Notes: generated by a model from the letters alone, not told the origin. DNA of 64,000 bases from an archaeon (GCA_043806035.1 JAZDHK010000028.1:1-64000), one strand, 5' to 3'; positions 7,133 through 26,974 are shown, counted from the stretch's first letter. A program made the numbers and translations.

Positions 7133-7139
7133 GCTGTCC

Positions 7140-7934
7140 TCATATGCCTATTGGTGGCCGTTGTGACCGTATGACTGCCAAAAACATGAATTGGATGAAT
7201 GCAATGCCTCCCGCAATGGAGAGCAGGACAACCAACTGCAGCTTGATGCCTATGAACGTCGACATGATAACTAGCATGGTCATGCCCAAGCTTGGGACGA
7301 TGATGGCTGCCATCATGTAGAACATGGCAAGAGGGCTAAGCTTCCTGCCATACTCCTGCACGGTAATCTGCTGTTCCCGCACCATCTGGTTAATGGCGAC
7401 GTTCAGGGAACGTGCAATATCGCTTCCCGTCCGCAAGCTGTTAAGCACTTGCCAGAGAATCTTCCTCAAATTTGCAGACGGGCAAATATCAATCGATTCA
7501 TTCAGCGCATCCTCCAAACCAGTTCCCATCTCCACCTTCTCGATAATCTCCCCAAAATACCTGCCAATAACGCGATAATTCCTGCTGATGTTCAAGAACG
7601 CAGTATAAATGGGAACGCCAGACTCAACTTCAATGATGAGAAACCTCCCTGCAAAGATGATTTCCTCATTAATCTGCTTCTCAATCTTGAGCACTTTAAG
7701 GTCAGTATAGCGCAAAAAGTAGAAGAACGCTATCACGAAGACGAAGGGTAATGCCAGGATGAGCCAGGGCGTCTTGAAGAACGCAAAGAGGAAAAAGAAC
7801 AGACCTATCGTTATGTAGAACGCCAACATCACCGTCTTTTTGATATACTGCTCAGGTGATTCGAGCATGTGTGCCTGGAGCAGTTTCAGCTTCAAACCAG
7901 GAATTCGCTTTGCAATATTCTCGTAAATCAGCAC
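7140..7934 (-). CDS. Type II secretion system F family (TadB/TadC-like) protein
   Basis: ESGVPIYTAF..GTGLEDAL..PSANLRKILWQVLNSLRTGSDI; TMs. Confidence 0.88.
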   Translation of the reverse strand: MLIYENIAKRIPGLKLKLLQAHMLESPEQYIKKTVMLAFYITIGLFFFLFAFFKTPWLILALPFVFVIAFFYFLRYTDLKVLKIEKQINEEIIFAGRFLIIEVESGVPIYTAFLNISRNYRVIGRYFGEIIEKVEMGTGLEDALNESIDICPSANLRKILWQVLNSLRTGSDIARSLNVAINQMVREQQITVQEYGRKLSPLAMFYMMAAIIVPSLGMTMLVIMSTFIGIKLQLVVLLSIAGGIAFIQFMFLAVIRSQRPPIGI

Positions 7935-7947
7935 GTCGCACCCTCTA

Positions 7948-9603: not shown

Positions 9604-9636
9604 ACCTCACCCCTTTTGCTTCCAACCTCTGTTGGA

Positions 9637-10791: not shown

Positions 10792-10870
10792 AGCCTAACA
10801 CCTGGATACGCCATTTAAATATCTTTCTAGTTGCGACAGATGCACCTGGCGAACCCGCACACCCATCTGC

Positions 10871-11827
10871 TTACGTGCACACCGTGTAGTTGAGCCCGGT
10901 CATGCCGTAATAGGCGAAATGACCCTGATCTATCCTGAACCAATCATCTGTGTAGTGCATGTTCTGCACCTGGCAACGGTCGTTTGCAGTCGAGGTGTTT
11001 GTAAAGTACAGATAATCAGCGATGCTATAGTCCCTGCTGATGAGCGATTCATCCAACGAGGGCAAGTACACAAAACTCTCAATGCCGAAAGGACTGGAAC
11101 TGATATTTCCCTCGAAGCGCATAAGATAGCTCGGCGCGTCAGGATTCTCATGATAGTAGCTGCCGTTGAGGAACAGTCGCAGATTTGTCGTGTCATTGTT
11201 TGAAAGGTTCACGAACGGCGTTTCCGTGAATTGTTTGATGATGACAATGAACTTCCCTTTCGCATACACGCTGTACAGCGGATCTTTCAAATCCAGAATG
11301 GGCACCGTGACGTTGAATTCTTTCTCATAATTCCATTGCGCCACGCCGAACTGATCACTAATGTTGATGATGTAGACAATGCTGATCATGACATCCCACG
11401 GGTCCACCTGCAGCATGTTCACTTGTTTGGGGGTGAGGCTGAGGTTGATGTTCACCTGGCTGGCAAGCTGTTCGACTTTGGCTTCATAATCGCTTAAGCT
11501 CGCATTCTGCATGAGTGCTGTCGACGTGCCGTTTATCGTGCCCAGATAAAATGCTTCGAGGAAACTCTCGTTCGTGCTGTTCAGGAACTGCCCTGAGCGT
11601 GCAACCTGATCTTCTAACGCAATGAACGCCCTATACCCTGAAATGTACATGCTTCGCTGCAGGTCATCATGAATGTCATTGATGAAGCTGATCATGGAAG
11701 ATACTCGGTACTCATGCGCTTCTTGCCGTGTCGTGTATGGTGTCGATGTCTTGAAGAAGACGAGAACAGTGATGAGTGCGAGGATGACGAATGCCACGTA
11801 CGTGTAAATGATTCCTCTCTTCATCAT
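10871..11827 (-). CDS. Pilin-like secreted protein (class III signal)
   Basis: MKRG|IIYTYVAFVILAL; many N-x-S/T sequons. Confidence 0.7.
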   Translation of the reverse strand: MMKRGIIYTYVAFVILALITVLVFFKTSTPYTTRQEAHEYRVSSMISFINDIHDDLQRSMYISGYRAFIALEDQVARSGQFLNSTNESFLEAFYLGTINGTSTALMQNASLSDYEAKVEQLASQVNINLSLTPKQVNMLQVDPWDVMISIVYIINISDQFGVAQWNYEKEFNVTVPILDLKDPLYSVYAKGKFIVIIKQFTETPFVNLSNNDTTNLRLFLNGSYYHENPDAPSYLMRFEGNISSSPFGIESFVYLPSLDESLISRDYSIADYLYFTNTSTANDRCQVQNMHYTDDWFRIDQGHFAYYGMTGLNYTVCT

Positions 11828-11828
11828 G

Positions 11829-14588
11829 TTACCTCCACACGTCCACCTGCATCAATGAAGGACCCCACAAGTAGGGCACTTGCTGCACAAGGCTTATCAC
11901 GAGCTCGAGATCGAACTGGTCCAGATTGACAAGGACCCTGCCGTTCCTATCAAAATCAAGCTGCTGCAAGAGGTCAAAAATGGGCATTTGGTAGGCGTCA
12001 AGCGCATCATAGCTGATGCTGGCGTTCGTGTACGAGCACAGATTCGCCCCCGAGTAGTTCGAGGGTATGAGCGTCTGGCTGAAGCTCCCATCCTCGAACT
12101 CTATCGTCCAATTACAGCCCTCGGCTTTTGGCAGAACGATGCTTCTCGGTGTTGAGCTGTTCACCATCGCCAAGTAAATGATCGTGTTGTTCAACGAGCA
12201 GCCAGTTTCCAGTAGAGAACTATCTCCCGTAAGGAGGGTTATGTTGTTCTCGCCAATGTTGAGAAGAGAGGCGGGAACGCTGATACTGTACGGGTCTCCG
12301 AGGCTTGCGAAATCAGCCCCGTACACGGATAGGTTGTAGACGGTGATATTGTTGATGATGACGTCTCTCGTCCAGTGCTCGCCACTGTAGCTCGTCACTC
12401 TAGCAGATATAATCCTTACACCTTCAGGAATGGTGAAAGTGGTATTGCATCCGCTGAACGGGCTGCTTTGCAACACGATGCTAATCTCGTTCGGCTGTGG
12501 CTGGTCAACATACGGCGTGTACGTGAGGTTGATGACGGAGTCATCATACAATACTGAAGGAACGAGACCTCCCTCGCTCACGACGAGGCTTTGCGCGCTC
12601 AGATTAACAGAGACAGTCCTGTTGGCAATGAATTTGTAAATATCTTTAAGTACGCTTGCGTTCGAGCTGATGAAGTAGCTGCCATTGGAGACGTTAGCAA
12701 TCATGCGCAACGTATAGTTTGCGTTTGTACACGTTTCTAATGGGCCTATGCCTACTGCATAGACCGTGACGTTGAGATCATCAAAAAGCCGTTGGGCAGA
12801 GTGTATTGCATTCGCGATGGGTGCATTGCACTGATTCCCTGTGCAGTCAGCCATATTTCCCCCGCAGTCGTTATCAACTGACACACTATTCACTCCTGTG
12901 CTCGTTGTGGAGCAATACCAATGACTTCCGCTCTTGTATCTGCCACAGCAGTAGGCAGGGATGCCGTCTGTCATGAGCACGACAGATCGTTTTCTTGTCG
13001 GGTTGCTGTACAAAGGATTACTGAGCAGATTATACGCCCTATTAAGCCCACAGCAGATGCACGTGCCGCCTGAAGGGGTTGGTGTCCAGTACGTTGTGCT
13101 AATTGACTGGTTCAGCAGCACTTGGGAAACGTTGGTGAGATCGCTGGAATATTCAGAATCATCAGAGAACGTAACGAGCCAGACTCGCGTGCCGTTATAG
13201 CTGGCATTCATCACATAATTGACGAATTCCCAATCGAGGCATGCCGCTACCTTGCTTCTTTTCGCCGATGAGTTCTCAAGCCATGTGTCATTGCAGTTGG
13301 GGATATTGTAGCCACTGCTTCCGCTTATCATGTTCCAGTTCATGCTGCCTGACATGTCCGTGATGAGAACGATGTCTGCGCTACTACCATTTATGGGGAT
13401 GAAGCTCGTATTGAAGCTGCTGAAGCGAATGGGAATGGTTCTGTTAGACAGCTGATCCAAGTACAGCACGGTGAGATTCTCCATGCCGAGCGTGACATTG
13501 GTTTCGTTCTGCGTCACGTTCGATCCGTTAGAAATGGCAGAGTAGACGAGCTTGTCTTCGATGTACAAAAAGGTTGAGTAGTTCGTCTTGTAGTGCAGGA
13601 ATATGCTGATATTCGTCAATTCCCCAGGAACGATGAATGCATCATACAGGTTGACAAGACCGCTTATGCCCGGGAAGGAGTACTGCTCAAGGCCGAACGT
13701 GTAGTTCTCCTGCAGCTGGTCGGTCCTGTACGTCACTTTGAAGTAGCCTCCTGCAAGGTATGCCTGGCTGATGTTGCCCTGGAAGACCATGCTCAGATTG
13801 GTTCTGGGCATGGTGATGAAGTCCTTGCAATGCGTGAGATTCCATCGTTTCGACTGGCTCGTATTCTGGACGGGAGTGAAGACTGCAGACGCATTTGAGC
13901 TGTTGCAGGCATTGCCATTGATGCTGAGCGTGAATGTTGCATTGCCTGCTGCCACCTCTAGGATGACATCGGTAATGTCAGATGTGTTCACATCAACAGG
14001 CAGGGTATCAATGAACGTAGTGATGTTTCCCTGCCCTATGAACCCACCAAAATAGGCATAACTTGAAGTTTTCTTGTTCTTTGCCCTCTTCACGAACGCT
14101 GAAGCCGTGCTGCCGAGCAGGGATTCGTTCTGCTGCACCTGCTTTATGCCTGAAATCATACGCCTCGCCACGATGCGCTCCTGCACCGGCAGTTGGCTGT
14201 TGTTGTACACGACCGTCCTTGGTGACTGTATCGTCTCGAAGAAGCTGATGTTCACCCCATGATTCTCCGGCGTGAGATTGCCCAGGAATGTCGCGATTAG
14301 TGTTGAAGCCTTGTCCGATTTGTTGAGCGCCCAGTACTCGCCCGCCTGCTCAAGTAGAGATTTGTTCTCATCGGTAATATTGCCATTGGTTATCTCTGCC
14401 AAAATGAATGTATCATTCAGCTCTGCAAGCCTCACCGTCTGCAATGCGAGGACGATGTCCTCAGCATAGAACGTCACTTGATCAGTGGTGTGCTTGAACG
14501 TAGAGACTTCGTTGATGAGCAGTAATCCTCCGATGAGCAGCATGGCTGCCAAGATGCTATCCATGGTGAACAGTATTGCTTTTCTCAA
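11829..14588 (-). CDS. Large pilin-like vWA-domain adhesin (TadG/PilY1-like role)
   Basis: RKA|ILFTMD signal, MIDAS DMSGS, GGT, VLMTDG, VTVYAVGIG; Cys-rich insert; TTG start overlapping the upstream stop. Confidence 0.8.
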   Translation of the reverse strand: MRKAILFTMDSILAAMLLIGGLLLINEVSTFKHTTDQVTFYAEDIVLALQTVRLAELNDTFILAEITNGNITDENKSLLEQAGEYWALNKSDKASTLIATFLGNLTPENHGVNISFFETIQSPRTVVYNNSQLPVQERIVARRMISGIKQVQQNESLLGSTASAFVKRAKNKKTSSYAYFGGFIGQGNITTFIDTLPVDVNTSDITDVILEVAAGNATFTLSINGNACNSSNASAVFTPVQNTSQSKRWNLTHCKDFITMPRTNLSMVFQGNISQAYLAGGYFKVTYRTDQLQENYTFGLEQYSFPGISGLVNLYDAFIVPGELTNISIFLHYKTNYSTFLYIEDKLVYSAISNGSNVTQNETNVTLGMENLTVLYLDQLSNRTIPIRFSSFNTSFIPINGSSADIVLITDMSGSMNWNMISGSSGYNIPNCNDTWLENSSAKRSKVAACLDWEFVNYVMNASYNGTRVWLVTFSDDSEYSSDLTNVSQVLLNQSISTTYWTPTPSGGTCICCGLNRAYNLLSNPLYSNPTRKRSVVLMTDGIPAYCCGRYKSGSHWYCSTTSTGVNSVSVDNDCGGNMADCTGNQCNAPIANAIHSAQRLFDDLNVTVYAVGIGPLETCTNANYTLRMIANVSNGSYFISSNASVLKDIYKFIANRTVSVNLSAQSLVVSEGGLVPSVLYDDSVINLTYTPYVDQPQPNEISIVLQSSPFSGCNTTFTIPEGVRIISARVTSYSGEHWTRDVIINNITVYNLSVYGADFASLGDPYSISVPASLLNIGENNITLLTGDSSLLETGCSLNNTIIYLAMVNSSTPRSIVLPKAEGCNWTIEFEDGSFSQTLIPSNYSGANLCSYTNASISYDALDAYQMPIFDLLQQLDFDRNGRVLVNLDQFDLELVISLVQQVPYLWGPSLMQVDVWR

Positions 14589-15106
14589 TTACCCACCTTC
14601 AAGTCAAAAACGTACACGTTCATCTTGATGAGGCTGCTGTTGAAGAGCAGAAATCTCGTTACCTTGACGAGATTATCGTAGGATGTGCTGTTCAGCTGGA
14701 ACGTGCAGTTGCCATTATCCTGCACGACACGAGCAGATCCATATCCACATGCCGTGATGTTGAGTATGTCTGTCTCATTCTGGAAATTGATGAAGAAATC
14801 GTATCTGAGCGTCATGAGCTGCTTTGCCGCACTATACGAGATGGATTGGTTGGTGAGCCACTGATACTTGGCAATGTCAAGACGATCCGCAGTCAGCAAT
14901 CCTATCCTGTACGGGCTGCCCGTCAGCGACCAATTTTCGGGATTGCCTTCGCTCATGAGGTAGTTGCTCAGAGTTATTGCTTCTTGTTGTAAGAGAGTAG
15001 CGTCTACAGGGAAGAGCCCCGCAATGATCTTGATGCTAAGCAGCAGCGCAGCTATGAATATTATGACGCTGATGAAGAAGTCCGCGGTGAAGCTTTGTCC
15101 TTTCAT
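14585..15106 (-). CDS. Minor pilin-like protein
   Basis: MKG|QSFTADFFISVIIF; LMSEGNPENW motif. Confidence 0.75.
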   Translation of the reverse strand: MKGQSFTADFFISVIIFIAALLLSIKIIAGLFPVDATLLQQEAITLSNYLMSEGNPENWSLTGSPYRIGLLTADRLDIAKYQWLTNQSISYSAAKQLMTLRYDFFINFQNETDILNITACGYGSARVVQDNGNCTFQLNSTSYDNLVKVTRFLLFNSSLIKMNVYVFDLKVGN

Positions 15107-15136
15107 AGTATTGTGCGTTGCAACCTAATGACGTGA

Positions 15137-15526
15137 TCACGTATGGCTGTTGATGATGGCTCCTGAGCTGTTCATGAAGAGCGTGTTGTTCCCCTTGGCA
15201 AGCCCATCACCAGCAAGAGGAGGTGCCCTGAACGAATATATCGCAGTCGCTGTGCTCACGGAAAAACCGTCAACATCAGAGGTTATTGAATAATTGTGCC
15301 CTTGCAGCATTTCGGGAATGACAACTGTTCTCGTGTAGCCTTGCGGGCTCTTTGCGGCAAGCAGCAATTCCGACTGTATGCTTTCCCCGAAGTTCTTGAG
15401 CAGCGCGTCCTGCTTTTGCTGCACTTGATCGAGCAGGATGGTGTTCAGGACAATGAGTGATATGCTCATGATGATGATACCTACTGCAATGAGTGCAATG
15501 AATTCTATGGTGATTTGCGCTTTCAT
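15137..15526 (-). CDS. Minor pilin-like protein
   Basis: MKA|QITIEFIALIAVG class III signal. Confidence 0.78.
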   Translation of the reverse strand: MKAQITIEFIALIAVGIIIMSISLIVLNTILLDQVQQKQDALLKNFGESIQSELLLAAKSPQGYTRTVVIPEMLQGHNYSITSDVDGFSVSTATAIYSFRAPPLAGDGLAKGNNTLFMNSSGAIINSHT

Positions 15527-15529
15527 GCA

Positions 15530-15997
15530 TTACCCGTTCGTAATACTCACATTCCCTGAGGGAAGAGCTTCTATCCGTATGGTGTTCATGCCATGAATGA
15601 TGGCCATGCTACCTTCAATATCAGTTATGGCATCTCTTGAAAGCGTGTATACCGTCCGCTCTCCTTGAACGGAAATCAGCATGCTTTTGTTGCTGAACGC
15701 AATGGCAATGACCCGTTGCGGCATGTACGCCTTTATGGTTTTTGTCGTCGGCGCCCCATAATAGTGCACGCCTTCTATGGTAGAAAGCATCTCATCAAGC
15801 ACTTTTGCTGCCTGGGAAAGGCTGACGTCATCATTGATGGCTTGCGTGTGGCTTAGGTAGATGATGATAACAGGAATGAGGAGGAGGAAGGCGAACCCCA
15901 TGATCAGTAAGTATTCCATGGCTGCCTGGCCGTAGTTGTGCTTTCCCACGCTGCGTTTCTGCAACCTCTTGTTCCGAACGTGACGAGAATGCATCAC
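15530..15997 (-). CDS. Minor pilin-like protein
   Basis: Long basic leader then G|QAAMEYLLIMGF; GGAGGTG RBS. Confidence 0.78.
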   Translation of the reverse strand: MMHSRHVRNKRLQKRSVGKHNYGQAAMEYLLIMGFAFLLLIPVIIIYLSHTQAINDDVSLSQAAKVLDEMLSTIEGVHYYGAPTTKTIKAYMPQRVIAIAFSNKSMLISVQGERTVYTLSRDAITDIEGSMAIIHGMNTIRIEALPSGNVSITNG

Positions 15998-17804: not shown

Positions 17805-18209
17805 TCATTCGTGCCTGTATGACTGGCGAAGGACATCATCGATGCTGTAGATGTCCCGCATGTTGAAATCACGAATGCCTCTCCAGGAAGATCTGCAGCA
17901 GGGCTTAAGGTCAATAGCGAGACTGTCCCCTTCACCAATGAGACTATCGACATATTGCATCCGTTGGAAGTCTCCTTCAGGGATGTAGTCTCGAAAAATC
18001 ATGATGCCTGCGCTGTCATTCTCGAGGATGAGACGGTAGACGTGTTTCCCTGCAATTTCGTACATGCCGTGCCGGTATATCTTTCCCGTGACGAGCTGAG
18101 AATAAACGAGAGGCTCCGGCTTGCGGCGCTGATGAAACAACTCATGCGTGTCTTGCGCAAATAACACGGACGACAAGCAGAGCATGCCTACCGCCAAGAG
18201 CGATTTCAT
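17805..18209 (-). CDS. Hypothetical secreted protein
   Basis: MKSLLAVGMLCLSSVLFAQ Sec-type signal peptide. Confidence 0.55.
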   Translation of the reverse strand: MKSLLAVGMLCLSSVLFAQDTHELFHQRRKPEPLVYSQLVTGKIYRHGMYEIAGKHVYRLILENDSAGIMIFRDYIPEGDFQRMQYVDSLIGEGDSLAIDLKPCCRSSWRGIRDFNMRDIYSIDDVLRQSYRHE

Positions 18210-18246
18210 GATAGGGGCAATATGCATGAGAATAAAAATATATTCC

Positions 18247-19047
18247 TCATTGCCCTGTTTGGGCGATTTCTTCAGGTAGAGTTTCTCCATTCACCCTGTT
18301 GAATAGCTCCTCGTCGATGATTGGTTTAAAAGAACCTTTGTAGAACGTGTCCTTGTACTTGACTTTGCCGATGTACGTCGGGTTCTTGATGATAGTGTAC
18401 AGCGTCGATATGGGCAGACCATATTTTGCCGCTATCTCCTTATAGCTTATGCCTTGCGCCCACATGGCGAAGATCTCCCTCACTTTTTCAGCATTTTCTT
18501 CGTGCACGACAAGCTTTTTGTTCACGTATTTGTAGCCGAGGGGAGCTCTCGACAATGCCTCTCCTAACTCGATTTTCCTGCTGAAGGCGAGTTCTACACG
18601 ATCTTTAATCATGCCTCTCTCCAATTGGGCGAAGACGCCTATTATCTGGAAGAACGCCTCACCCATCGCAGATGTCGTGTCTATCTGCTCGGTAACGGAG
18701 GTGAAATTGATTCCTTGCTCCTTCAGCTTCTCCATAATCGTGATAAGATCCTTGAGCTTTCTCGAGAACCTATCAACTTTGTAGACGAGGATGATACTGA
18801 ATTTCTTTTCCTCCGCGTCACGCATGAGCAGCTCGAACGCAGGCCTGTTCATGCTGCCCGCGCTGAAGCCCGCATCCTGGTAGACTTTGTAGACGGTCCA
18901 GCCCTTCGCCTCGCAATATGATCTACAACGGTCAACTTGCGCCTTCAGAGAGATGCCTTCTAGGGCTTGTTCTTCTGTCGAGACGCGGACGTAGATGGCT
19001 ACTTGGTTCTTGACCTGCTCAGTGTTTGAAATGTTCTTCCTTACCAT
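18247..19047 (-). CDS. Serine recombinase (resolvase catalytic domain plus recombinase domain)
   Basis: AIYVRVSTEEQ, DAGFSAGSMNRPAF, VYKVDRFSR, FAQLER, APLGY, NPTYIG, PIIDEELF. Confidence 0.93.
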   Translation of the reverse strand: MVRKNISNTEQVKNQVAIYVRVSTEEQALEGISLKAQVDRCRSYCEAKGWTVYKVYQDAGFSAGSMNRPAFELLMRDAEEKKFSIILVYKVDRFSRKLKDLITIMEKLKEQGINFTSVTEQIDTTSAMGEAFFQIIGVFAQLERGMIKDRVELAFSRKIELGEALSRAPLGYKYVNKKLVVHEENAEKVREIFAMWAQGISYKEIAAKYGLPISTLYTIIKNPTYIGKVKYKDTFYKGSFKPIIDEELFNRVNGETLPEEIAQTGQ

Positions 19048-20711
19048 GTTTCTTTGGCACCGCTTCGCGCAAGATCGAAATCTATTATTTTCACGACAAG
19101 TCGTGACATTCCTTCATGATTTTTTTCTTTCATCACCGTGAAATTACCATCGTGCGGATGATTATGAGCTATCCGTTGTCGCCTAAGCTGCGATGTTATC
19201 CATTGTTGTTGACGATCAATCTCTGCTTCCTCCTCTGCACTTTGTGGACGGTATGAACGTAATGCCTGACCGGCAAATTTTGTCAGGACTTTAACGTAAC
19301 GCCCATCCTTAGAGTGCACAATTCTTGGATTTCCTTGCCCGTCACGGAGTATTTCCTCACAATGCAAGACACCATCCTTATCTGTAAGAGCGTGTTCTGC
19401 AAGTTCCCAGGCCACATACGCATCCCGTGATACGATGCGTATGATGTATCCTGTCAGTTTTCCTCCAAGAGGAATAAGTACGCTTCCTGTTTTATTGAAC
19501 TGCAGTCGATTGAATATGACTTCCTGACTAGCTAGTCTGTCCGCGTTCTCCCCCACCAGCTTGTCCGTATATTCGCTCGACCCCAAGAGGTCATAATACT
19601 GTTGGGCTACGGTCATCAGTGTATCTAGCTTGTCGATACTGTTGATTGAGCACGATTTTGTGGATAGCACGAACAGGTGCGGATTCTTTCTGATTCGTTC
19701 CATGATATCAGGCCACTTGCCTGCATAGATGATGCGTTGGCAATTGCACAAGCTGAACCTATACGTGTCACAGATATCGTTTTTCACCACTTCAGCAACC
19801 TGTACCAGCAACGGCCAGTTCTCCCATGTCAGCAACCCCGCTTTGCGCAGAGCATAGAAGCCAAACACAAACACGTCCTGTGTCTGTTCCTTCGCAGCAT
19901 TTGACATCTTCACCATGCCATCGACGAGCGATGGCCATGTTCCTGACAATAGCATACCTGCATTCTGCAGATGCTGCAGTCCAAGATCGAAGAGGCCTTG
20001 CGTTCCTTTTACCTTCATATAATCTGCTTCGCAAAGCCTGAGCGTGTCCTGTTGGTGTTCCTGCAGGAATTGCCAGAGAACCGTATTATATCGGAAAAAA
20101 GATTCAGTAACGCCTCGTCGCAAGAGTTCTTCTTTGAACGCATCGCTGCTCATGCCGGGAATCCTCTCTTTCATAGACGTAAGTATATACAGAACGTTAT
20201 CTATGCTCTCGTTCACGAGCTCTGTCGTTTTTGGCTGTGATGAGAGAGTAGCATGCAGCCAATCCATATATCGCTTGTCACCCTCCCATGCATTAAATAC
20301 TGCCTTCAGGAATTCCTCTAGTTTTGCGACAGCTTCTGCGTCCTTAGCTGACAGTCTAAGCGTCTTCGTTTCCTTCAAATCCTTTATGAGAGATGCAAGA
20401 TGCTTACGTCGCTTCTGGTCAAACCAATACAATGAATATCTCTCCAACCTGGCTCTTGTCATATTATTAAGAAGTATGTCTATTTTCTTCTGCAGATGGG
20501 TATCAGGCGCAACATCAGAGCCTGAATACGTGTATTCAAGCTGCCTGCCGAACCATTTGCTCAAAAGGTGTGGTAATGCCAAAGTCTCACTTTTCTGCTT
20601 CAAAATTGGTTGTCGTTCCTTACGCCTTTGCCACGCTCTGTTTAGGTCATTTGCTGCCGCATCCTTGGTGCAGATGATATCTGTTACTGCAAAAGGCTTT
20701 AAAACAGCCAA
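19041..20711 (-). CDS. Hypothetical protein with helical repeats and a C-terminal atypical kinase-like domain
   Basis: IAHNHPHDGNF..KIIDFDLAR; imperfect repeats L..AGLL...WP.LV. Confidence 0.55.
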   Translation of the reverse strand: MAVLKPFAVTDIICTKDAAANDLNRAWQRRKERQPILKQKSETLALPHLLSKWFGRQLEYTYSGSDVAPDTHLQKKIDILLNNMTRARLERYSLYWFDQKRRKHLASLIKDLKETKTLRLSAKDAEAVAKLEEFLKAVFNAWEGDKRYMDWLHATLSSQPKTTELVNESIDNVLYILTSMKERIPGMSSDAFKEELLRRGVTESFFRYNTVLWQFLQEHQQDTLRLCEADYMKVKGTQGLFDLGLQHLQNAGMLLSGTWPSLVDGMVKMSNAAKEQTQDVFVFGFYALRKAGLLTWENWPLLVQVAEVVKNDICDTYRFSLCNCQRIIYAGKWPDIMERIRKNPHLFVLSTKSCSINSIDKLDTLMTVAQQYYDLLGSSEYTDKLVGENADRLASQEVIFNRLQFNKTGSVLIPLGGKLTGYIIRIVSRDAYVAWELAEHALTDKDGVLHCEEILRDGQGNPRIVHSKDGRYVKVLTKFAGQALRSYRPQSAEEEAEIDRQQQWITSQLRRQRIAHNHPHDGNFTVMKEKNHEGMSRLVVKIIDFDLARSGAKETW

Positions 20712-20865
20712 TTTTCACACATTTCATTCTAAATTGGGAATCCTTCACATAATGGTTTTAAACCCTTATTAGAATAAACTTGTATTTATACCTTTCGAAA
20801 ACAAACCTAATGCTTAAAGGTTGCGAGCAATAACTGAAAATTATGTTATCCTTACTCAAACATGC

Positions 20866-21429
20866 TCATTTATTCAACGCCTGCTCGAGCTTTGACGGAG
20901 CTTTCTCAGGAAGGGCAACCCCATTAGTCTCGGAAGATTTTTTCACAGATTTCTTTTTAACAGATATATTTTTTATTTTTGTACTGGCAATCGGGACAAA
21001 TTGTTCTTTTTTCTCTTTATTAGACGTATTCAAGGCAGATTTTTGCACAGCTGTCTGAACTGCCGTGTCTGGTTTCTTTTCTTGTTCGGACTGCACTTTT
21101 TTCTGCCTTGGCTGCTTTTGGACCGTTTGTTTCTTCGGTCGCTGGATCAGCCCCTTGAAACCATAGAAATATCTGCTAAAAAGAGAGTATTGTCTTTTTA
21201 ACTCAACACTACCTTGATCAGTTAATGCATACATCTTTTTTCTTCCCGCTCTTCTAAAAAAAACGAGTTTCATTTTCCTTAATCTTTTTAATGTCGGATA
21301 GATTGTCCCCGGAGTCAACGTCGATCCTTTCCTTTTTCCTATACGCACTGCAAGCTCGTCCCCCGACTGCTGTTTCTGCTTCAATTCATGCAAGATAATG
21401 AAACTGAGGAATCCTTTGAATTCAATCAT
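20866..21429 (-). CDS. PadR-family winged-helix regulator with a Lys-rich C-terminal tail
   Basis: GFLSFIILHEL..SGDELA..TPGTIYPTLKRL..GRKKMYALTDQG. Confidence 0.85.
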   Translation of the reverse strand: MIEFKGFLSFIILHELKQKQQSGDELAVRIGKRKGSTLTPGTIYPTLKRLRKMKLVFFRRAGRKKMYALTDQGSVELKRQYSLFSRYFYGFKGLIQRPKKQTVQKQPRQKKVQSEQEKKPDTAVQTAVQKSALNTSNKEKKEQFVPIASTKIKNISVKKKSVKKSSETNGVALPEKAPSKLEQALNK

Positions 21430-21627
21430 ATTAACGCCTCTTTCAACCATTTTTTGCCATTTCACCAGCCATCAAGCAACAACAATACACAAATGAATGC
21501 TCCTATTTAAATGTTTCTTTTTCATATTGGTCACACAATAAATAAAGCCAAGAAAACTTTTGTTTTTTGCCAAGAATATTTAAGCAGAAGAAACAACAAT
21601 TCTCATTGGTCAATAAATATGTAGTTT

Positions 21628-21655
21628 GATAAATATATAGTACATTATATTTATA
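21628..21655. other. dif-like 11-6-11 site in an AT-rich intergenic region
   Basis: GATAAATATAT-AGTACA-TTATATTTATA with 9-bp perfect inverted arms; resembles archaeal dif architecture. Confidence 0.4.
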
Positions 21656-21832
21656 GTAACAACAATTAATTTATTTATCAATATATTGAATAATAAATAT
21701 GTGTGAAAACAGGCAATAAACAAAACAAAAATAGGTCAAAGCAAAAAAAAAAAGAAGAATACCTCTTCAAAAAAATCGAAAGAAAACTGTCAAAATAAAG
21801 AGAAAATAAAGAAAATACAGCAAAAAAGTGAG

Positions 21833-22243
21833 CTACTTACACAAAGAACCAGCCAAATAAGAGACTGCAGACAAACAAAAACCAACAATAGACCCCACCA
21901 TACCATACTGACCCATACTCTCATCATCAGATTCTATGCCTCTCTCCTTACAAAAGTGAGCATCTTGACGTTCTTTATACCAGCCATAGCAAACGCCGCC
22001 ACCCATACCCGACGCAGTCCCTATGCCTAAAGCAGCATTGCCTCCAATAGAGCCAGTATACCCCTCAAAAAAAGGCAGAAGAATACACCCGCCTACACCA
22101 AAAAGAACCGATGAACCGTACAAAACATTGTCTCCAAAGCGAGAAAGTGAGCTTTTGTTAATGGGAGTCACTTGCATGACAAACTGCTTATTCGTTAACT
22201 GCTCAACAAGCCCATCAAGTTCACCAACAGATTCTCTGTCCAT
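21833..22243 (-). CDS. Hypothetical Gly-rich membrane protein
   Basis: Three Gly-rich hydrophobic segments; GAGGAGG RBS. Confidence 0.6.
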   Translation of the reverse strand: MDRESVGELDGLVEQLTNKQFVMQVTPINKSSLSRFGDNVLYGSSVLFGVGGCILLPFFEGYTGSIGGNAALGIGTASGMGGGVCYGWYKERQDAHFCKERGIESDDESMGQYGMVGSIVGFCLSAVSYLAGSLCK

Positions 22244-22254
22244 ACTATTCCTCC

Positions 22255-22764
22255 TCAAACCGTCCGCTCTTCCCGAATGTGCTTAACAACACCCTCATCG
22301 ACCTTGACAAGCTTATTCCTTGCCTGCAAAGCCTTGAATTGAGGATCCAAATACAAGTAAATCTTCTCATCGATAAGCTGCTTTAAAAGGGGAACTCCCT
22401 TCGCAGTTATATTATAAACGGCATTGTTGACCATATCTTCAGTAAGGCCGAGCTTTCTTGCAACATCTGCAGCAGTCAATTTTGCCTCAGATGCATACAC
22501 GACCAAGAAAACCTCCTGTTCCCTGTGCGTGAGCGTGATGTTCAACGTGGAGAAGTGAGGATTCAGCTGTAATGAAAGCTCGTCCATGCGTTCTGCCAGC
22601 TTGTCGATCTTCTTCTCCAACTCAGCAAGCTGGTCCTGCACGTAATCAATCTCTTGCGTGTTCTCATTAATGGAATCGAGATGCTGGTCCAGCTCCTCCT
22701 TGACTTTAGAAAATGCCCGACGGATACCATCGTCCATCTTTTCGAGAAGCTCATTCGCGTCCAT
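22255..22764 (-). CDS. Coiled-coil plus winged-HTH protein
   Basis: N-terminal heptads (AFSKVKEELDQHLDSINENTQEI..LEKKIDKLAERMDEL), then LTHREQEVF..LTAADVARKLGLT. Confidence 0.75.
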   Translation of the reverse strand: MDANELLEKMDDGIRRAFSKVKEELDQHLDSINENTQEIDYVQDQLAELEKKIDKLAERMDELSLQLNPHFSTLNITLTHREQEVFLVVYASEAKLTAADVARKLGLTEDMVNNAVYNITAKGVPLLKQLIDEKIYLYLDPQFKALQARNKLVKVDEGVVKHIREERTV

Positions 22765-22791
22765 GCACACCCCTTGCATCGGAAGTCAGCA

Positions 22792-23634
22792 TTACTTTTT
22801 ATAGTTTCTTATTGGCACAGCAGTTGCGCGATCCTGCAGAGATTCTCCACAATACTTGCAGAATTTCGCCGAGAAATCATGACCTTCTCTTCCACATGAC
22901 GGGCACGCTTGTGTGGAAACTCTCGTCACTTTCGCCATCTCCACAGAAACTATGCCTGTAGGGACTGCCAATACACAATAACCGAGAATCATGAGCATGC
23001 TCGCCACTACCTTCCCCCAAACTGTTCTCGGTACGAGGTCACCATAGCCGACGGTGGTGAGGGTGACTATCGCCCAATAAATGGAATGCGGGATGTTGTC
23101 GAATCCAGATGCTGTTCCTTCAATAATGTACATGACTGCTCCTGCGATGATGACAATGCTGAGCACGGCAAGAAGAAACACGCTGATCTTGGGAAAGCTT
23201 TCCTTGAGCGCCAGACTGAGCCCTTCAGCCTCGAAGACATACCGTCCCAGCTTGAATATCCTGAACAATCTGAGCAAGCGCAGCACCCTGATGACGAGCA
23301 GCACTTGCAGCCCTGGAAAGATGAGGCTCAAGTACGTCGGCAAGAAGGATATGAGATCGACGATGCCGTAAAAGCTGAAGATGTACTTGCTTGGCTTATC
23401 TATGCTGATGATACGCAGAACATACTCTACCGTGAAGAGTATGGTGAAAAACCATTCAATGCCCAACAGCAATGAACCGTGAGCGAGGTTGAATCCGGAC
23501 AGGCTATCAAGAATTACTGCCAGGACGCTGGCGATGATTGCAAGGATGATGATGACATCAAATGCCTTTCCTGCTGGCGTGTCTGCCTCGTAGATGATTT
23601 CGTGCAGCTTGTTCTTCCACTGCTCATTCGCCAT
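22792..23634 (-). CDS. Voltage-gated-type potassium channel (ion transport protein)
   Basis: S4 RVLRLLRLFRIFK, filter TLTTVGYGD, C-terminal CPSC..CKYC. Confidence 0.93.
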   Translation of the reverse strand: MANEQWKNKLHEIIYEADTPAGKAFDVIIILAIIASVLAVILDSLSGFNLAHGSLLLGIEWFFTILFTVEYVLRIISIDKPSKYIFSFYGIVDLISFLPTYLSLIFPGLQVLLVIRVLRLLRLFRIFKLGRYVFEAEGLSLALKESFPKISVFLLAVLSIVIIAGAVMYIIEGTASGFDNIPHSIYWAIVTLTTVGYGDLVPRTVWGKVVASMLMILGYCVLAVPTGIVSVEMAKVTRVSTQACPSCGREGHDFSAKFCKYCGESLQDRATAVPIRNYKK

Positions 23635-23676
23635 GCCCTTCCTGTGAGGAAGAGATTTAAATAAGTTGCGAGAAAA

Positions 23677-23952
23677 TCAATGATACAGAGAGATTTTTCC
23701 TTGTTCTTTGCTAATGAAAGCAGTCAGCAAGGCAAGTATGCCATCGAGATCCTTAACCGTTGTCTTCCCCTGCTCATCTCTAATCTGACATGTAGTCGAA
23801 AAATCAACGTCGACAATTTTCTTCGTGAGGGGATTGATAATGCTTGGCATGATCTTGCAGGAATATCCTTGCTCGCTCGAGAAAACGTTCACGAGATGTC
23901 TATCATACGTGCCGCCATCAACGTAATATTGCTTGAACAACTTTTCCCCCAT
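23677..23952 (-). CDS. Hypothetical protein
   Basis: 91-aa ORF with upstream TTTATTAA, fills the gap. Confidence 0.5.
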   Translation of the reverse strand: MGEKLFKQYYVDGGTYDRHLVNVFSSEQGYSCKIMPSIINPLTKKIVDVDFSTTCQIRDEQGKTTVKDLDGILALLTAFISKEQGKISLYH

Positions 23953-24008
23953 GCTCTCACAAATCAGCGCTGCTTAATAAACATGACGAAAAAAAGCCTA
24001 GCATCCCA

Positions 24009-24350
24009 TTATTCCTTGTACTCAACGTATACTGTTTTGCCATCAAGAGAAACTGCATTGAAGAGGTGTTCCCAACAGTCATCGAGATGCCACCCATCAT
24101 CAGCAACAGGGTTGTTTCTTTTGGGATGAGGACAGGCATCTAGACAAAGCGTTTGTATTTCTTGTGAATCATATTTTCGTAAATCCCGCAGGCAAACGAG
24201 CATGCCGTGCACGTTTGGTCTTGGTGCGACATACACACCGTGCTCTAACCTGCCACTTTCGCCTCTTCGCTCATACTCAGCAATATCACGGTCTATAACG
24301 TCATCGTGGATAATCATCAGTTTGCCGTTCACCAGTAGTTCAATTGCCAT
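24009..24350 (-). CDS. Hypothetical protein
   Basis: ORF starting MAIELL with TTTTTAAA about 25 nt upstream. Confidence 0.5.
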   Translation of the reverse strand: MAIELLVNGKLMIIHDDVIDRDIAEYERRGESGRLEHGVYVAPRPNVHGMLVCLRDLRKYDSQEIQTLCLDACPHPKRNNPVADDGWHLDDCWEHLFNAVSLDGKTVYVEYKE

Positions 24351-24454
24351 CAAAAAAAGAAAGGATAGCTTGTTTAAAAACATATCTAACAAGACAGCAT
24401 GACAACAGCCACCGCATTGGCTCTTTCAGGACAGAACCAGGCCCACAGCAAACT

Positions 24455-24462
24455 TTATAAAC
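24455..24462 (+). promoter_or_regulatory. Archaeal TATA box of rpoL (probably leaderless mRNA)
   Basis: TTTATAAA ending 22 nt before the ATG at 24485. Confidence 0.6.
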
Positions 24463-24484
24463 ACCCTGCCTCTCCCGAAACGTC

Positions 24485-24769
24485 ATGGAAACGGTCGTCC
24501 TCGAAAAGACAAAGAAAAAGCTTGTTTTTGAGCTGAAAGGAGCGGATCATACGCTCTGCGGTGCGCTCAAGCAGGAGCTCTATAACGACAAGGCAGTGAA
24601 GGTTGCCACATACAGCATGAGCCACCCGCTCACGAGAATTCCCAAACTCATTATCGAAACGGACGGCACGAAAAGCCCTGCAAAGGCTCTTATTGATGCT
24701 GCAAAGCGCATCCAGAAGGACAATGAGACATTGGCCGAGTCCATAAAAAAATTCAAGATTTCTGCATAA
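24485..24769 (+). CDS. rpoL: DNA-directed RNA polymerase subunit L (Rpo11)
   Basis: FELKGADHTLCGALKQEL..ATYSMSHPL..PKLIIET. Confidence 0.93.
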   Translation: METVVLEKTKKKLVFELKGADHTLCGALKQELYNDKAVKVATYSMSHPLTRIPKLIIETDGTKSPAKALIDAAKRIQKDNETLAESIKKFKISA

Positions 24770-24777
24770 TTGGAATT

Positions 24778-25383
24778 CTACGTCCTGGCAACAAGTTTTC
24801 CTAGCTTGCCCAAACCCTTTGCGAGAATGAATACACCGAGCACACCAGCACCAGAGATTGCAGCGTCCTTGTACAGCCTGGTTTTTTCCTGCTCATACGG
24901 CGCTCTTGTTCTTGACTCCTCATCCAGGTAAGCGTGAAATATGGATTGCGCCGTGCGAAGCAATGCAAGGCTACTCTCGCTAAACTGCCGTATCGTATCA
25001 TTAGTGATGTCCACGGTCTTGCCCGGAGTTGCAACATACGTCTTCTCAAACTCTAGCAGTCGCTCATACAATGCTTGTTTGTTTTCTCGCTCAAGAACGC
25101 CCGTCTCTAGACTATACTCGAGAAACTCTTTGGCATGATAGAAAGCACGTACTGAACGTATCGGCAGGAACGTGTCCACCGGCTTGAAGTCCCTCCTGTT
25201 CATGGCATTAATCGCATAATTGCGAACAGGGCACAGTTCCGCATACACTTTCTGGAAGAGCTCTCTTTCCCCAACAATCTCGTCAAGAGCACGTTTACTC
25301 TGCGTGTAGGATTCCTTGCTGCGCATAAGCGCCTTTCCATTAGGAAGTACTTTTTCAATGCTTAACTTCACGTAGGGATGCAT
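24778..25383 (-). CDS. Hypothetical C-terminally anchored protein, paralog A
   Basis: Paralog of 25539..26153 (LFQKVYAELCPVRNYA, AKEFL.YSLETG); C-terminal TM plus basic tail. Confidence 0.75.
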   Translation of the reverse strand: MHPYVKLSIEKVLPNGKALMRSKESYTQSKRALDEIVGERELFQKVYAELCPVRNYAINAMNRRDFKPVDTFLPIRSVRAFYHAKEFLEYSLETGVLERENKQALYERLLEFEKTYVATPGKTVDITNDTIRQFSESSLALLRTAQSIFHAYLDEESRTRAPYEQEKTRLYKDAAISGAGVLGVFILAKGLGKLGKLVART

Positions 25384-25538
25384 CTTTCTTTCACCCACAA
25401 CATACAAAGCAGTTTTGGTATAAATACCTTGTGCTCAGGTTTTGCCGAATGCATAACAAGAAATATATCTGCCAAGTTTTCATTAAGCACAGCAGAGTCA
25501 TCACAAATGACTTTGAGCAGTTTCCTGCTCTGTAACGT

Positions 25539-26153
25539 CTACACTCTTGTGATAATCTTTCCTAGTTTGCCTAGTCCTCTGCCGATGAACATAATACCTA
25601 TAGTCCCTGCCACGGACAGGGCAATCTCCTTGTAGAGCGTGCTCTTTTCTCTCCGGTAGGGCTGCCTGAGCTTCTGCTCTTCCTCGATATATGCTCGCAG
25701 GATTCCTTCCGCTTGCAGAAGCAGGTCAAAGCTCTTGTCGCCAAAATCCTGGACTGTTTCATCAGTTATGCGCTTTACCTTTCCAGAGAATCCAGTGACG
25801 TACTGGTCCTCAAGCACATCAAGTCCTGCAAGCAATGCCTGCTTTTCCTCAACATGCAGTTTTCCCGTTTCTAGACTGTACTGGAGGAATTCCTTGGCGT
25901 TATAGAATGCACGAAGGGCGTTGATGGGCATGACGCTGTCCAATGGCTCAAAATTGCGCTTGTTCATGGCTTCAAGGGCATAATTACGGACAGGGCACAG
26001 TTCCGCATACACTTTCTGGAAGAGGTGTTTCTCACCGACAAGGTCATCAAGAGCGTGCTTCCGTTCAAGGAAAGCAGCCCCCTGCTTCATGACCATCTCT
26101 CCATTCATCACGACCATGCCTATTCCGCGCTTAACATAAGGATGCATATCCAT
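25539..26153 (-). CDS. Hypothetical C-terminally anchored protein, paralog B
   Basis: Colinear paralog of 24778..25383. Confidence 0.75.
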   Translation of the reverse strand: MDMHPYVKRGIGMVVMNGEMVMKQGAAFLERKHALDDLVGEKHLFQKVYAELCPVRNYALEAMNKRNFEPLDSVMPINALRAFYNAKEFLQYSLETGKLHVEEKQALLAGLDVLEDQYVTGFSGKVKRITDETVQDFGDKSFDLLLQAEGILRAYIEEEQKLRQPYRREKSTLYKEIALSVAGTIGIMFIGRGLGKLGKIITRV

Positions 26154-26227
26154 CACCCGAGAGAGGTAAATGCTTCACCATTTATATATGTTATGAGAAA
26201 ATCTTGCCTGGATGCAATTCAAGAACG

Positions 26228-26974
26228 TCATTCTTTCAATGCGTATTTCCACATCAGCAGGAACTGGTTTCTATAGCTGTCTGCGTTCTCTTTGTTACAG
26301 ATGACGATGGCAATGGGCGGTCTTGCCGTCCATATGAAGAGAATGACATTGTTGTTGTAGATCATGGTGTCGGTTATGCTGGCAAACTCTCTGGGATGGA
26401 ATCGTGCTTCTCCAACGTAGTTTTGCAGAAGCTCTGGCGATTTTTTTTTCACGTCCTCATTAAAGATAACTTGGGAAGTGATGCCTAGCTTTTTCTTTCT
26501 TTTCTGCCAGAGTTCCCAATAGGGACCCATGACTTCTTTGAAAAGTCCGGAGACGCCGAAATCAGAGTATTCTCCTTTTGAACCAAGTTCATCGAGCATC
26601 TTGTCCAGAACAGCTCTGATGCCGTTCACGCCAGAATAGACAGTGACGTCCTGTTTTTCAATGCTCAGCTTCGCCTTTAATGCCAACTCTGGAAGGATGC
26701 TGTCCAGCTTCTCTTCCTTCTCCTTCAGCATGTCCTTGAACTGTTCTGGAGGCGCAGCGGCGAAATGCTGCTTCTTCCCTTTTATTATCGATGATACGAG
26801 TCCTTTCTCTTGCAGACGCTGGAGAATCTGATATGTTGTGCCTCTATGCAGTCCTGTTTTTTTGATTACTGGACCAGCCAAGGTCGATCCTAGCTCGAGC
26901 AAGGAAAGATAAACTCGAGCTTCAGCCTCTGAGAGGCCGAGATCTTCAAGAACTTCCATTTCGGTATAGGGCAT
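26228..26974 (-). CDS. TrmB-family transcriptional regulator
   Basis: LEDLGLSEAEARVYLSLLELG..TGLHRGTTYQILQRLQEKGLVS; VTVYSGVNGI effector domain. Confidence 0.9.
   Translation of the reverse strand: MPYTEMEVLEDLGLSEAEARVYLSLLELGSTLAGPVIKKTGLHRGTTYQILQRLQEKGLVSSIIKGKKQHFAAAPPEQFKDMLKEKEEKLDSILPELALKAKLSIEKQDVTVYSGVNGIRAVLDKMLDELGSKGEYSDFGVSGLFKEVMGPYWELWQKRKKKLGITSQVIFNEDVKKKSPELLQNYVGEARFHPREFASITDTMIYNNNVILFIWTARPPIAIVICNKENADSYRNQFLLMWKYALKE

Follow-up and report, generated by a model that had tools for sequence, protein, structure and literature searches.

Resolvases autoregulate at res, and a cis site at the promoter of a recombinase's own gene suggests, by analogy, both autoregulation and resolution. 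An xerA gene with adjacent dif, as found in relatives of the archaeon studied here, corresponds to the 'individual xerA/dif module' of which relevant passages of two papers speak (PMC5357621, PMC11840125), and archaeal dif sites are placed 122-144 degrees from oriC, not 180, in passages of one of them (PMC5357621); therefore 'terminus' and 'resolution locus' were judged separately in this work. For PadR-s2 regulators, autoregulation via several inverted repeats with an AT-rich core and oligomerisation on DNA are described, and for cdPadR1 higher-order binding of such repeats (passages of PMC5050560). Here we analyse a stretch of 64,000 nt, positions 1-64000 of contig C28 (the window in what follows), from an archaeal genome of 1.50 Mb in 42 contigs (G000, 93.7% complete), whose nearest protein clusters are labelled Woesearchaeota/Nanobdellota. 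The locus of interest consists of a short serine recombinase gene, a PadR-family gene, a long AT-rich gap and a gene for a protein with a coiled coil and a winged helix-turn-helix (CC-wHTH).

The original prediction took this locus for a replication terminus, or origin, and for a site of chromosome resolution and segregation. We compared it with 40 relatives, 18 from the same family and 22 from other families of the order, which together with G000 gives 41 genomes. Very probably the locus is a conserved module of recombinase and regulators, and neither an origin nor a terminus. Relatives carry XerA with dif in the same slot, and for this ancestral module the resolution-segregation part of the prediction is a fair description; its terminus or origin part fails. 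That a serine recombinase together with its own site was swapped in place for XerA/dif, within a conserved regulator-recombinase module, is a reading of the sequences to which we give an even chance, and its replacing XerA/dif also in function we regard as plausible with some doubt prevailing.

Every gene between 16.1 and 23.6 kb of the window is on the minus strand. Along this strand the order is an ion channel gene (22792-23634), the CC-wHTH gene, a Gly-rich open reading frame (ORF) of 141 aa, the gap of 367 nt (21466-21832), the PadR gene, a gap of 154 nt, an ORF of 556 aa (p556), the serine recombinase gene and an ORF of 161 aa (p161), followed by PhoU and PHO4 genes. The parts of the module are:

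22255-22779, minus strand: CC-wHTH gene, 174 aa, long N-terminal helix, then MarR/ArsR-like winged helix
21711-21832, minus strand: T-tract-rich part of the gap, A-rich on the plus strand (AT skew +0.69), CTCACTTTT motif at its start (21822-21834)
21600-21700, no strand: array of phased palindromes, with a perfect CAATATATTG (21679-21688) and degenerate copies in phase with it, +16, +32, +48 and +64 nt away (e.g. 21631-21640)
21504-21536, minus strand: candidate PadR promoter, TATA-like CATTTAAATA at 21504-21513, further GTGTGACCAATATG copy abutting upstream at 21523-21536
20866-21465, minus strand: PadR-family gene, 199 aa, N-terminal wHTH and Lys/Gln-rich C-terminal tail
20733-20792, minus strand: promoter and candidate recombinase site in the 154-nt gap between PadR and p556, TATA-like GGTATAAATA at 20783-20792, element 1 CTAATAAGGGTT at 20761-20772, element 2 GAAGGATTCCCAAT at 20733-20746
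18247-19047, minus strand: short serine recombinase gene, 266 aa, Pfam Resolvase 4.2e-41 (140.9 bits, cut-off 23.3), Recombinase 1.2e-10

One slot with two kinds of recombinase

That the genes might be unlinked in relatives had been named as a result against the prediction, but they are linked: CC-wHTH neighbours PadR in 16 of 19 fetched loci, and Rpo11 lies beside the pair in 15. The CC-wHTH gene is a single-copy core gene of the order, with one match each in 37 of the 41 genomes (36 of the 40 relatives). A PadR homologue is present in 23 of the relatives, homologues of 54-65% identity being found in 15 of the 18 same-family genomes, and the serine recombinase is present in 13. By a tally of coordinates, a site-specific recombinase gene lies at most 5 kb from CC-wHTH in 23 of the 36 relatives bearing CC-wHTH (15 of the same family, 8 of other families). 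Judged from these loci, the module appears to be inherited vertically in the chromosome of this archaeal order.

Where the serine recombinase is missing, a tyrosine recombinase of about 270 aa is encoded one to five genes downstream of PadR. It scores 246-281 bits on the NCBIfam profile recomb_XerA_Arch (cut-off 220) in 11 genomes and matches solved XerA structures at 1e-49 and 9e-48. The two versions of the slot can be compared directly in two relatives: G007 has the order Rpo11, CC-wHTH, PadR, several small ORFs, XerA, F4, F4, F11 and L35Ae, and G005 the order Rpo11, CC-wHTH, PadR, serine recombinase, F4, F4, F11 and L35Ae, with both flanks as in G007. The high-scoring XerA group is absent from all 13 serine-recombinase genomes, and the six XerA genomes with a PadR locus have no serine recombinase in the slot. 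For G013 and G019 there is no match to Phage_integrase or a tyrosine recombinase at E <=0.001, and G005 (100% complete, 6 contigs) has a 45-bit match only. The cargo between PadR and the conserved flank varies; it is p556 here, and a papain-like protease and unknown ORFs in relatives. From this arrangement we infer that the cassette is exchangeable and that its ancestral occupant was xerA with dif just upstream.

Two genomes of two other families have a short tyrosine-recombinase-like ORF of about 220 aa beside CC-wHTH (G027:C15:8986-9543 and G031:C15:23147-23719). It comprises the catalytic domain only, the G027 copy has an internal TGA, and it represents a third kind of recombinase neighbour.

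To find the dif sites of the relatives, their XerA loci were searched for inverted repeats of 11-6-11 geometry that have TAA-N6-TTA as their core, and the five sites obtained make up the profile used below. The dif consensus of the order is AGTTCGYATAA-TGTAYA-TTATRCGAACT, with examples at L043:2245-2272, L044:4027-4054, L086:5684-5711, L088:5648-5675 and L040:11062-11089. In four of the five loci the site precedes xerA by 17-110 nt, in the fifth by 1.2 kb. On the profile, four of six further XerA loci reach 18-25.5 bits, and 12 of 13 serine-recombinase loci stay below 10 bits; the exception is G019, with 19.8 bits at 110 nt upstream of its serine recombinase gene. In the three XerA genomes tested (G011, G006, G024) the dif pattern is found at one place per genome. 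A hit with two mismatches at C1:171400 of G005 lies inside an ABC permease gene and was rejected as a chance match. The real dif of the family thus belongs to the xerA cassette and not to the AT-rich gap.

The AT-rich gap of the window is where the original prediction had placed a dif-like site, probably 21628-21655 (no strand), an inverted repeat of 11-6-11 geometry whose arms are complementary at 9 of 11 positions and which overlaps two units of the array. This candidate matches the dif of Thermococcus kodakarensis (sequence taken from PMC11840125) at 18 of 28 positions, and 42 strand-specific positions of the genome reach at least 18/28. With an identity at chance level, without the TAA-N6-TTA core and with less than 11.1 bits on the family dif profile, it was rejected as dif. 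The profile finds no family-type dif in the window, the best score being 11.1 bits on C28 and 15.3 in the genome. The text of a preprint on 208 complete Nanobdellota genomes contains no XerA, recombinase, skew or ORB, and in 12 of its 16 places with a word beginning in 'dif', those examined, the word is an ordinary one such as 'different'.

The serine recombinase and its candidate site

The phrog_95 integrase profile is matched by the recombinase of the window with 279.8 bits (1e-82), covering profile positions 80-352 of 651 only. The catalytic domain of the TP901-1 integrase is matched at 7.6e-33, CcrB with 155.7 bits and 1.8e-45, against an NCBIfam cut-off of 900, and gamma-delta resolvase at 1.9e-12. 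By these matches the protein appears to be a relative of the large serine recombinases without their C-terminal half. A zinc-ribbon family of Pfam was found neither in the 266-aa protein nor in a relative of 409 aa. The residues Y19, R21, S23, D58, R68, D92, R93, R96, E143 and R144 are invariant in 11 recombinase sequences; all of these except Y19 presumably have catalytic roles, and from its sequence the enzyme looks intact. The slot gene is the only Resolvase match in G000 and in each of five relatives' genomes tested. Its region has a host-like GC content of 0.49 (18-19 kb), and no phage or plasmid genes were found beside it in a PHROG search.

In relatives the recombinase gene is associated with a GGGTTCCC-centred palindrome of the GGG-TT-CCC type, which has a two-base centre. 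Its form differs between the two clades, A and B, of the recombinase tree: all five clade-A relatives have ATAAGGGTTCCCTTAT 55-420 nt upstream of the gene, and CTTAGGGTTCCCTAAG or a near variant lies between TATA box and ATG in six clade-B relatives and in a further one, G010. The exact palindrome occurs at one place per genome in all ten relatives' genomes tested. Being single, the site speaks against both an invertase and an inserted element, and it fits a dif-like use.

G019 and G013 have a collinear counterpart of the stretch 20733-20792 upstream of their recombinase genes, and in both of them element 2 is the perfect palindrome TAAGGGTTCCCTTA. In the window no match to AAGGGTTCCCTT within two mismatches is present at the place of element 2, and p556 is inserted between the candidate site and the recombinase gene in this genome. 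The genome has an exact AAGGGTTCCCTT at C27:21540, within a coding gene, which was rejected as a chance match.

The PadR gene, its array and the AT-rich gap

Residues 24-90 of the PadR protein match Pfam PadR at 3.6e-10 (40.1 bits, cut-off 27), and its PDB matches are PadR-type regulators of about 100-125 aa. The gap upstream of the gene has no ORF of at least 70 aa. Much of what the original prediction said of this surrounding is borne out: the gap had been named the longest and most AT-rich intergenic stretch, and it is the longest of the 10 gaps above 150 nt in the window and has the lowest GC content among them, 0.245 against about 0.48 for the window (the runner-up, 155 nt at 63303-63457, has 0.252); the flanking genes are all on the minus strand, as had been stated; and for the nearby serine recombinase, the PadR wHTH with basic tail and the coiled-coil wHTH Pfam and the structure model agree with the description. 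The stretch 21518-21817 has a GC content of 0.22 and ranks second of 26 separate 300-nt stretches with GC <=0.30 in the 1.5-Mb genome.

The exact 10-mer CAATATATTG of the array is found once in 1.5 Mb, and its site at 21679-21688 is the top profile hit of the genome with 23.6 bits, the next one having 19.0. Copies of CAATATATTG are spaced 16 nt in 14 of 16 gaps of relatives and 32 nt in the other two. All 16 PadR loci possess the array, including that of G024, where PadR and CC-wHTH sit on different contigs, and it is present with a serine-type or tyrosine-type recombinase alike; a pattern of two units is found at exactly one place per genome in five of five AT-rich relatives. Of three XerA/CC-wHTH gaps that lack PadR, those of G035 and G033 are without the array, and that of G036 has a single copy. 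The units can be read as consecutive ATTG-N6-CAAT, with a half-site spacing of one turn, as for wHTH dimers. Because the array follows PadR, has this wHTH-dimer spacing and has a precedent in the PadR-s2 regulators, it is probably the PadR operator. It sits 100-180 nt upstream of the PadR promoter, for which 21504-21536 is the candidate, and the order of array, TATA, about 25 nt and start codon is the same in relatives.

Between CC-wHTH and PadR the relatives have a non-coding gap of about 190-700 nt, with some 50-nt blocks of 4-20% GC. Its contents are, in this order, a CTCACTTT motif, T-tracts on the coding strand, two to four CAATATATTG palindromes, a TATA-like box, about 25 nt and the PadR start. 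The CTCACTTT motif was seen in most of the relatives' gaps examined by eye and not in the shortest one, L039. T-tracts exceed A-tracts on the coding strand in 17 of 17 gaps, and their spacing peaks near 11-12, 22-24 and 34-36 nt, a phasing that suggests curved DNA.

Further elements were observed in these gaps. A palindrome type GCTTAAAA-n-TTTTAAGC recurs in relatives' PadR gaps, at the 3' ends of convergent xerA/CC-wHTH genes and at 21568-21587 of the window, and may be a terminator-like hairpin or another protein site. In one genus the gaps have a 45-nt element TTTAG-n-CTCACTTT-n-TTTGTGCTYAA. In three public runs (short metagenome contigs of the same organism, with a thin depth of about 2-7) there are no joints and no alternative orientation, and the sole differences are in A-tract length, with 2 nt missing at 21743 and 1 nt at 21797. 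The run of a second study holds the gap core 21528-21715 with one difference.

Origin and terminus signals

The only Cdc6_C match (orc1) of the genome is at C18:1107-1373, and in a genome-wide scan the full origin recognition box (ORB) TTCCAnnnGAAATnAnGGGGT is found without mismatch only at C18:88 and C18:7845. The full ORB pattern, with up to two mismatches, has three genome hits, and the mini-ORB TTCCANNNGAAA has 26, none of them on C28. C18:1-260 is a canonical oriC-type region, a full ORB lying 110 nt upstream of the only orc1 at the contig start, and a second cluster of one full ORB and two mini-ORBs is seen at 7.8-7.95 kb (C18:7800-7950). In all six relatives examined a gap of 0.6-1.1 kb upstream of orc1 has classical ORB boxes of the type TTCCAnnnGAAATnAnGGGGT around an AT-rich stretch. 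None of the ten relatives checked has orc1 near the locus: G034, whose genome is a single contig, has it about 330 kb away from XerA/CC-wHTH, and the others have it on a different contig. The GC content of 0.17 across 21601-21710 is an AT-rich feature of the unwinding type, though not specific for origins.

GC skew is independent of gene strand in this genome and can therefore be used: C20 has only 16% of its coding bases on the plus strand, yet a skew of +0.052, and C29 has 74%, yet -0.051. The strand-independent component at third positions has the same sign as the total GC skew. Along C28 the cumulative GC skew falls near-monotonically from 0 to -1241. The strand-corrected skew is -0.106 left of the gap and -0.044 right of it, adjacent segments of about 10 kb having -0.056 and -0.124; it does not change sign at the locus, and every 16-kb window of C28 is zero or negative. 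G015:C3 and G017:C16 likewise show no change of its sign at the homologous locus. On G005:C4 the locus coincides with a peak of the raw cumulative skew (64-68 kb), and a sign change of the corrected skew lies no more than about 10 kb away; the peak falls on a switch of gene orientation, and the corrected skew flips at several other places of the contig. For the complete relative G034 we sampled 22 stretches, 419 of 1301 kb. Of the 12 stretches lying between 761 kb and, past the end of the contig, 130 kb, 11 have a positive corrected skew, and all six between 195 and 455 kb have a negative one, so that the skew switches at about 715-761 kb (orc1 is at 765 kb) and at about 130-195 kb, and XerA and CC-wHTH are at 432-436 kb. 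Elsewhere in G000 the cumulative or strand-corrected GC skew changes sign at about 24-30 kb of C39, 15-18 kb of C19, 9 kb of C5 and 49 kb of C33; the change on C39 is from plus to minus, the terminus-side type in G034.

The AT skew of the plus strand is -0.14 to -0.26 across the three genes left of the gap, +0.69 over the right third of the gap (21711-21832), +0.25 over the 426-nt gene 21833-22258, -0.06 over 22255-22779 and -0.08 to -0.19 over the three genes at 24778-26974. Lys, Glu, Asn and Gln together make up 23-35% of the left genes against 16% of the right gene, which has 17% Gly, and the local asymmetry follows protein composition. It is gone within 1-3 kb of the locus, and across the window the 1-kb AT skew spans -0.26 to +0.25 with many sign changes. 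The strand composition named in the original prediction is thus found as described, T-rich left and A-rich right of the centre, but it is local and follows the amino-acid composition, the very outcome under which the prediction was to be given up. The skew inflection on genome scale that had been looked for at the locus is missing on C28. A specific likeness of the PadR protein to Bacillus RTP was not found at the sequence level either: the 20 PDB matches at E <=1 are 19 named PadR-type regulators and one uncharacterized protein, with no RTP among them, and the Pfam matches at E <=0.01 include no RTP family. The locus is no origin of replication, and the analysis gave no sign of a terminus.

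Proposed role and alternative explanations

Along the minus strand the module would be made up of CC-wHTH, the long T-tract-rich gap, PadR and a recombinase cassette of promoter, cis site and gene. PadR dimers would bind and oligomerise on the array and control their own gene, possibly the cassette too. The serine recombinase would bind the single-copy GGGTT/CCC-type site in its own promoter region and repress this promoter, and it would join two copies of the site only when a chromosome dimer or a sister chromosome supplies the second one, thereby standing in for XerA/dif. The pairing of proteins with DNA elements and the dimer-resolving role are proposed here from sequence comparison. In its widest form the proposal is a tentative one: a short serine recombinase, with a GGGTTCCC palindrome present once per chromosome, may have displaced XerA/dif in place as the system of chromosome-dimer resolution in several lineages of this DPANN order, on a platform of PadR array, T-tract DNA and CC-wHTH that supplies FtsK-like control. 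Equally tentative is our view of the platform's parts, which would be the phased PadR operator array, the T-tract-rich and probably curved DNA, and the near-universal, order-specific CC-wHTH, whose gene is often adjacent to the recombinase gene.

Several observations speak against such a role. The sample is 41 genomes, and kin are not independent. A Xer-like tyrosine recombinase of 268 aa is encoded at C20:4040-4846; with 187.3 bits it has the best XerA-profile score of the genome (cut-off 220). The gene borders a 4-kb segment of low GC (0.28-0.37) at the contig end (C20:1-4846), and the enzyme looks like an island integrase. The intergenic 28-mer GTTTGTAATAA-TGTATA-TTACGACAAAA at C42:2442-2469 has a TAA-TGTATA-TTA core and 8 of 11 arm positions complementary. 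The genome has four sites that combine a TAA..TTA core with 11-6-11 geometry, and this is one of them. The TATA box of a TrmB-like gene follows it immediately, so that the 28-mer could be an operator or else a dif for the C20 enzyme. A Xer/dif pair may therefore still exist in this genome. Element 2 of the window is hardly palindromic, as compared with the 14-mer TAAGGGTTCCCTTA, which is exact in five of five clade-A relatives; the recombinase system could be decaying here. Since the site is degenerate, a role in replacing XerA/dif is weaker here than in relatives, and this together with the C20 enzyme and the C42 28-mer weakens the claim that this genome depends on the serine recombinase. According to passages of Cortez 2010 some archaea are without XerA altogether, and therefore loss without replacement is possible. 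The recombinase tree has two deep clades (100/100 support) that are interleaved on the tree of CC-wHTH and PadR, a backbone resting on two short proteins and with two rows on long branches. The interleaving means that the slot changed its occupant several times, and repeated transfer of a selfish cassette fits it as well as functional replacement does.

The locus may instead be an ordinary autoregulated PadR promoter beside an unrelated remnant of a domesticated or still selfish serine integrase. The gap would then regulate PadR only, and the recombinase with its adjacent site would be a minimal mobile cassette, inserted again and again at a permissive place and playing no part in chromosome resolution; we hold this to be possible and not the expected outcome. 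The closest matches of the recombinase, to phage and staphylococcal cassette chromosome (SCC)-type large serine recombinases (phrog_95, CcrB), are in line with it, as are the variable cargo, the interleaved clades, the degenerate site in this genome and the fact that archaeal serine recombinases have so far been seen in transposons (passages of PMC8371274). However, the intact palindrome has a single place in ten of ten genomes, unlike attL/attR or terminal repeats, the gene is single-copy with host-like GC and without phage or plasmid genes alongside, and it occupies exactly the slot of XerA and dif, never being found together with that XerA group. Phase variation offers another role for a serine recombinase, with the Hin/Gin and the Bacteroides Mpi invertases as examples. 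A switch in which the enzyme flips or deletes the promoter-bearing gap would agree with its matches to DNA-invertase families (phrog_125 1.2e-49, Mpi 4.7e-11) and with the palindromes and the inferred promoter in the gap. We consider it very unlikely, as an invertase requires two inverted sites where ten of ten relatives have one exact copy of the palindrome, and as the array is unchanged where the recombinase is XerA.

A replication module, with forks starting or meeting at the gap and the wHTH proteins acting there, has in its favour that the gap is an AT extreme on the level of the genome, with phased T-tracts and DNA-binding proteins at its flanks, that the raw skew of G005 peaks at the locus with a corrected sign change near by, and that the T. 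kodakarensis dif lies in an intergenic, SMC-dependent boundary of about 1.9 kb, SMC stalling being correlated with A-tracts (passages of PMC11840125). Such a module is nevertheless hardly credible, given that ORB and orc1 are on C18 and none is at the locus, that the corrected skew keeps its sign across the locus in three genomes, that the peak in G005 falls on a switch of gene orientation with several other sign changes on that contig, that both skew switches of G034 are far from XerA/CC-wHTH, and that the local A/T asymmetry fades so soon.

Neighbouring genes and further observations

The structure model of CC-wHTH (mean predicted local distance difference test, pLDDT, 83.8) has one helix of 65 residues (8-72) and the wHTH at 85-173. 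Foldseek gave MarR-family proteins as best matches (E about 1e-4), and a profile of 16 homologues searched against PDB sequences gave AdcR at 1.9e-4. No Pfam family was above cut-off, and the fold search gave generic MarR/ArsR/CodY winged helices only and no known accessory factor of recombination. Three further ORFs lie within or next to the module:

21833-22258, minus strand: Gly-rich membrane-like ORF, 141 aa, a lineage-specific insertion between CC-wHTH and the gap
19041-20711, minus strand: p556, lineage-specific ORF, 556 aa, its end overlapping the recombinase gene by 7 nt
17805-18290, minus strand: p161, 161 aa, overlapping the 3' end of the recombinase gene by 44 nt

None of the three has a match in Pfam, NCBIfam or PHROG; the Gly-rich ORF has no tblastn match (1e-5) in the loci of 19 relatives, and p556 was not found in relatives' loci. 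The feature and structure neighbours of p556 in the atlas are kinase-like families (Kdo/APH/RIO/OspG-like), and HNHPHDGN ... IIDFDLA can be read in its sequence; a resemblance of its C-terminal 250 aa or so to an (atypical) protein kinase is a lead only. p161 was compared with the second recombinase-like ORF of relatives, and with no likeness seen this assignment was rejected.

An Rfam scan of 20500-24600 (E <=1) gave only a chance match to enod40 (17.6 bits, cut-off 45) and no known RNA family that would explain the gap, and the 64-kb window has no tRNA genes. An archaeal type IV pilus-like operon is found at 5696-15997 on the minus strand, with two T2SSF proteins, a T2SSE ATPase, a 919-aa VWA-domain protein and several small pilin-like ORFs. 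Two tandem paralogous ORFs of 209 and 205 aa (24778-25407 and 25539-26156, minus strand) have C-terminal ends alike (GLGKLGK) and no family match.

Comparison with known systems

If the proposed role is true, a serine recombinase would for the first time be found at the base of a cellular chromosome-resolution system, and the platform would provide the archaeal counterpart, as yet unknown, of the control exerted by FtsK in bacteria. Literature searches, on the level of listings, found no published report of chromosome-dimer resolution by a serine recombinase. The locus is in effect a natural experiment, in which a single conserved slot among unchanged neighbours holds XerA and dif in some genomes and a serine recombinase with a single-copy site in others, and both versions are flanked by the same two wHTH genes and a genome-unique operator array. 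It consists of concrete proteins and DNA sites of a few dozen bp each, which are open to direct assay. For the order, the analysis provides a dif consensus, an ORB-type origin beside orc1 and a GC skew that is independent of strand, and so usable, both in this genome and in one complete relative. If the integrase remnant is the right explanation, the locus is an ordinary one, a regulator beside a domesticated integrase.

The recombinase systems to be compared differ in enzyme and in site. In archaeal XerA/dif, XerS/difSL, XerH/difH and the haloarchaeal dif upstream of the xerA operon, the recombinase has its site near by, and here the same slot has a recombinase gene with a candidate site in its own promoter region; the enzyme is a serine and not a tyrosine recombinase, and the site is of the GGG-TT-CCC type with a two-base centre and not 11-6-11. 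Tn3/gamma-delta resolvase with res and the multimer-resolution systems of plasmids likewise have a serine recombinase gene with a cis site in or beside its own promoter, but here the gene is chromosomal and single-copy, with a 'Recombinase' domain of the large serine recombinase type, and a res architecture of three subsites is not demonstrated. The large serine recombinases (TP901-1 integrase, CcrB, XisF) are the best sequence matches; the protein of the window differs in its 266 aa without the C-terminal half, in having no attL/attR pattern and in a CcrB score far below the cut-off.

With PadR-s2 regulators (cdPadR1, LmrR, bcPadR1) the locus shares a short PadR wHTH and several inverted repeats with AT-rich core upstream of the regulator's own gene. 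In place of ATGT-N8-ACAT or TACT-N11-12-AGTA, however, this locus has CAATATATTG, repeated with a strict phase of 16 bp; the protein has a long basic tail, and its gene belongs to an archaeon and is tied to a recombinase cassette. Archaeal oriC, too, has repeats in a non-coding, AT-rich stretch; this locus is without ORB box and orc1, and the genuine oriC-type region is on C18. The dif-flanking boundary of T. kodakarensis, a roadblock of TrmBL2/SMC (passages of PMC11840125), is similar in its large AT-rich intergenic region with A/T tracts, in adjoining a resolution site and in its wHTH proteins. The proteins here are PadR and the order-specific CC-wHTH, and the likeness is one of description, with no homology claimed.

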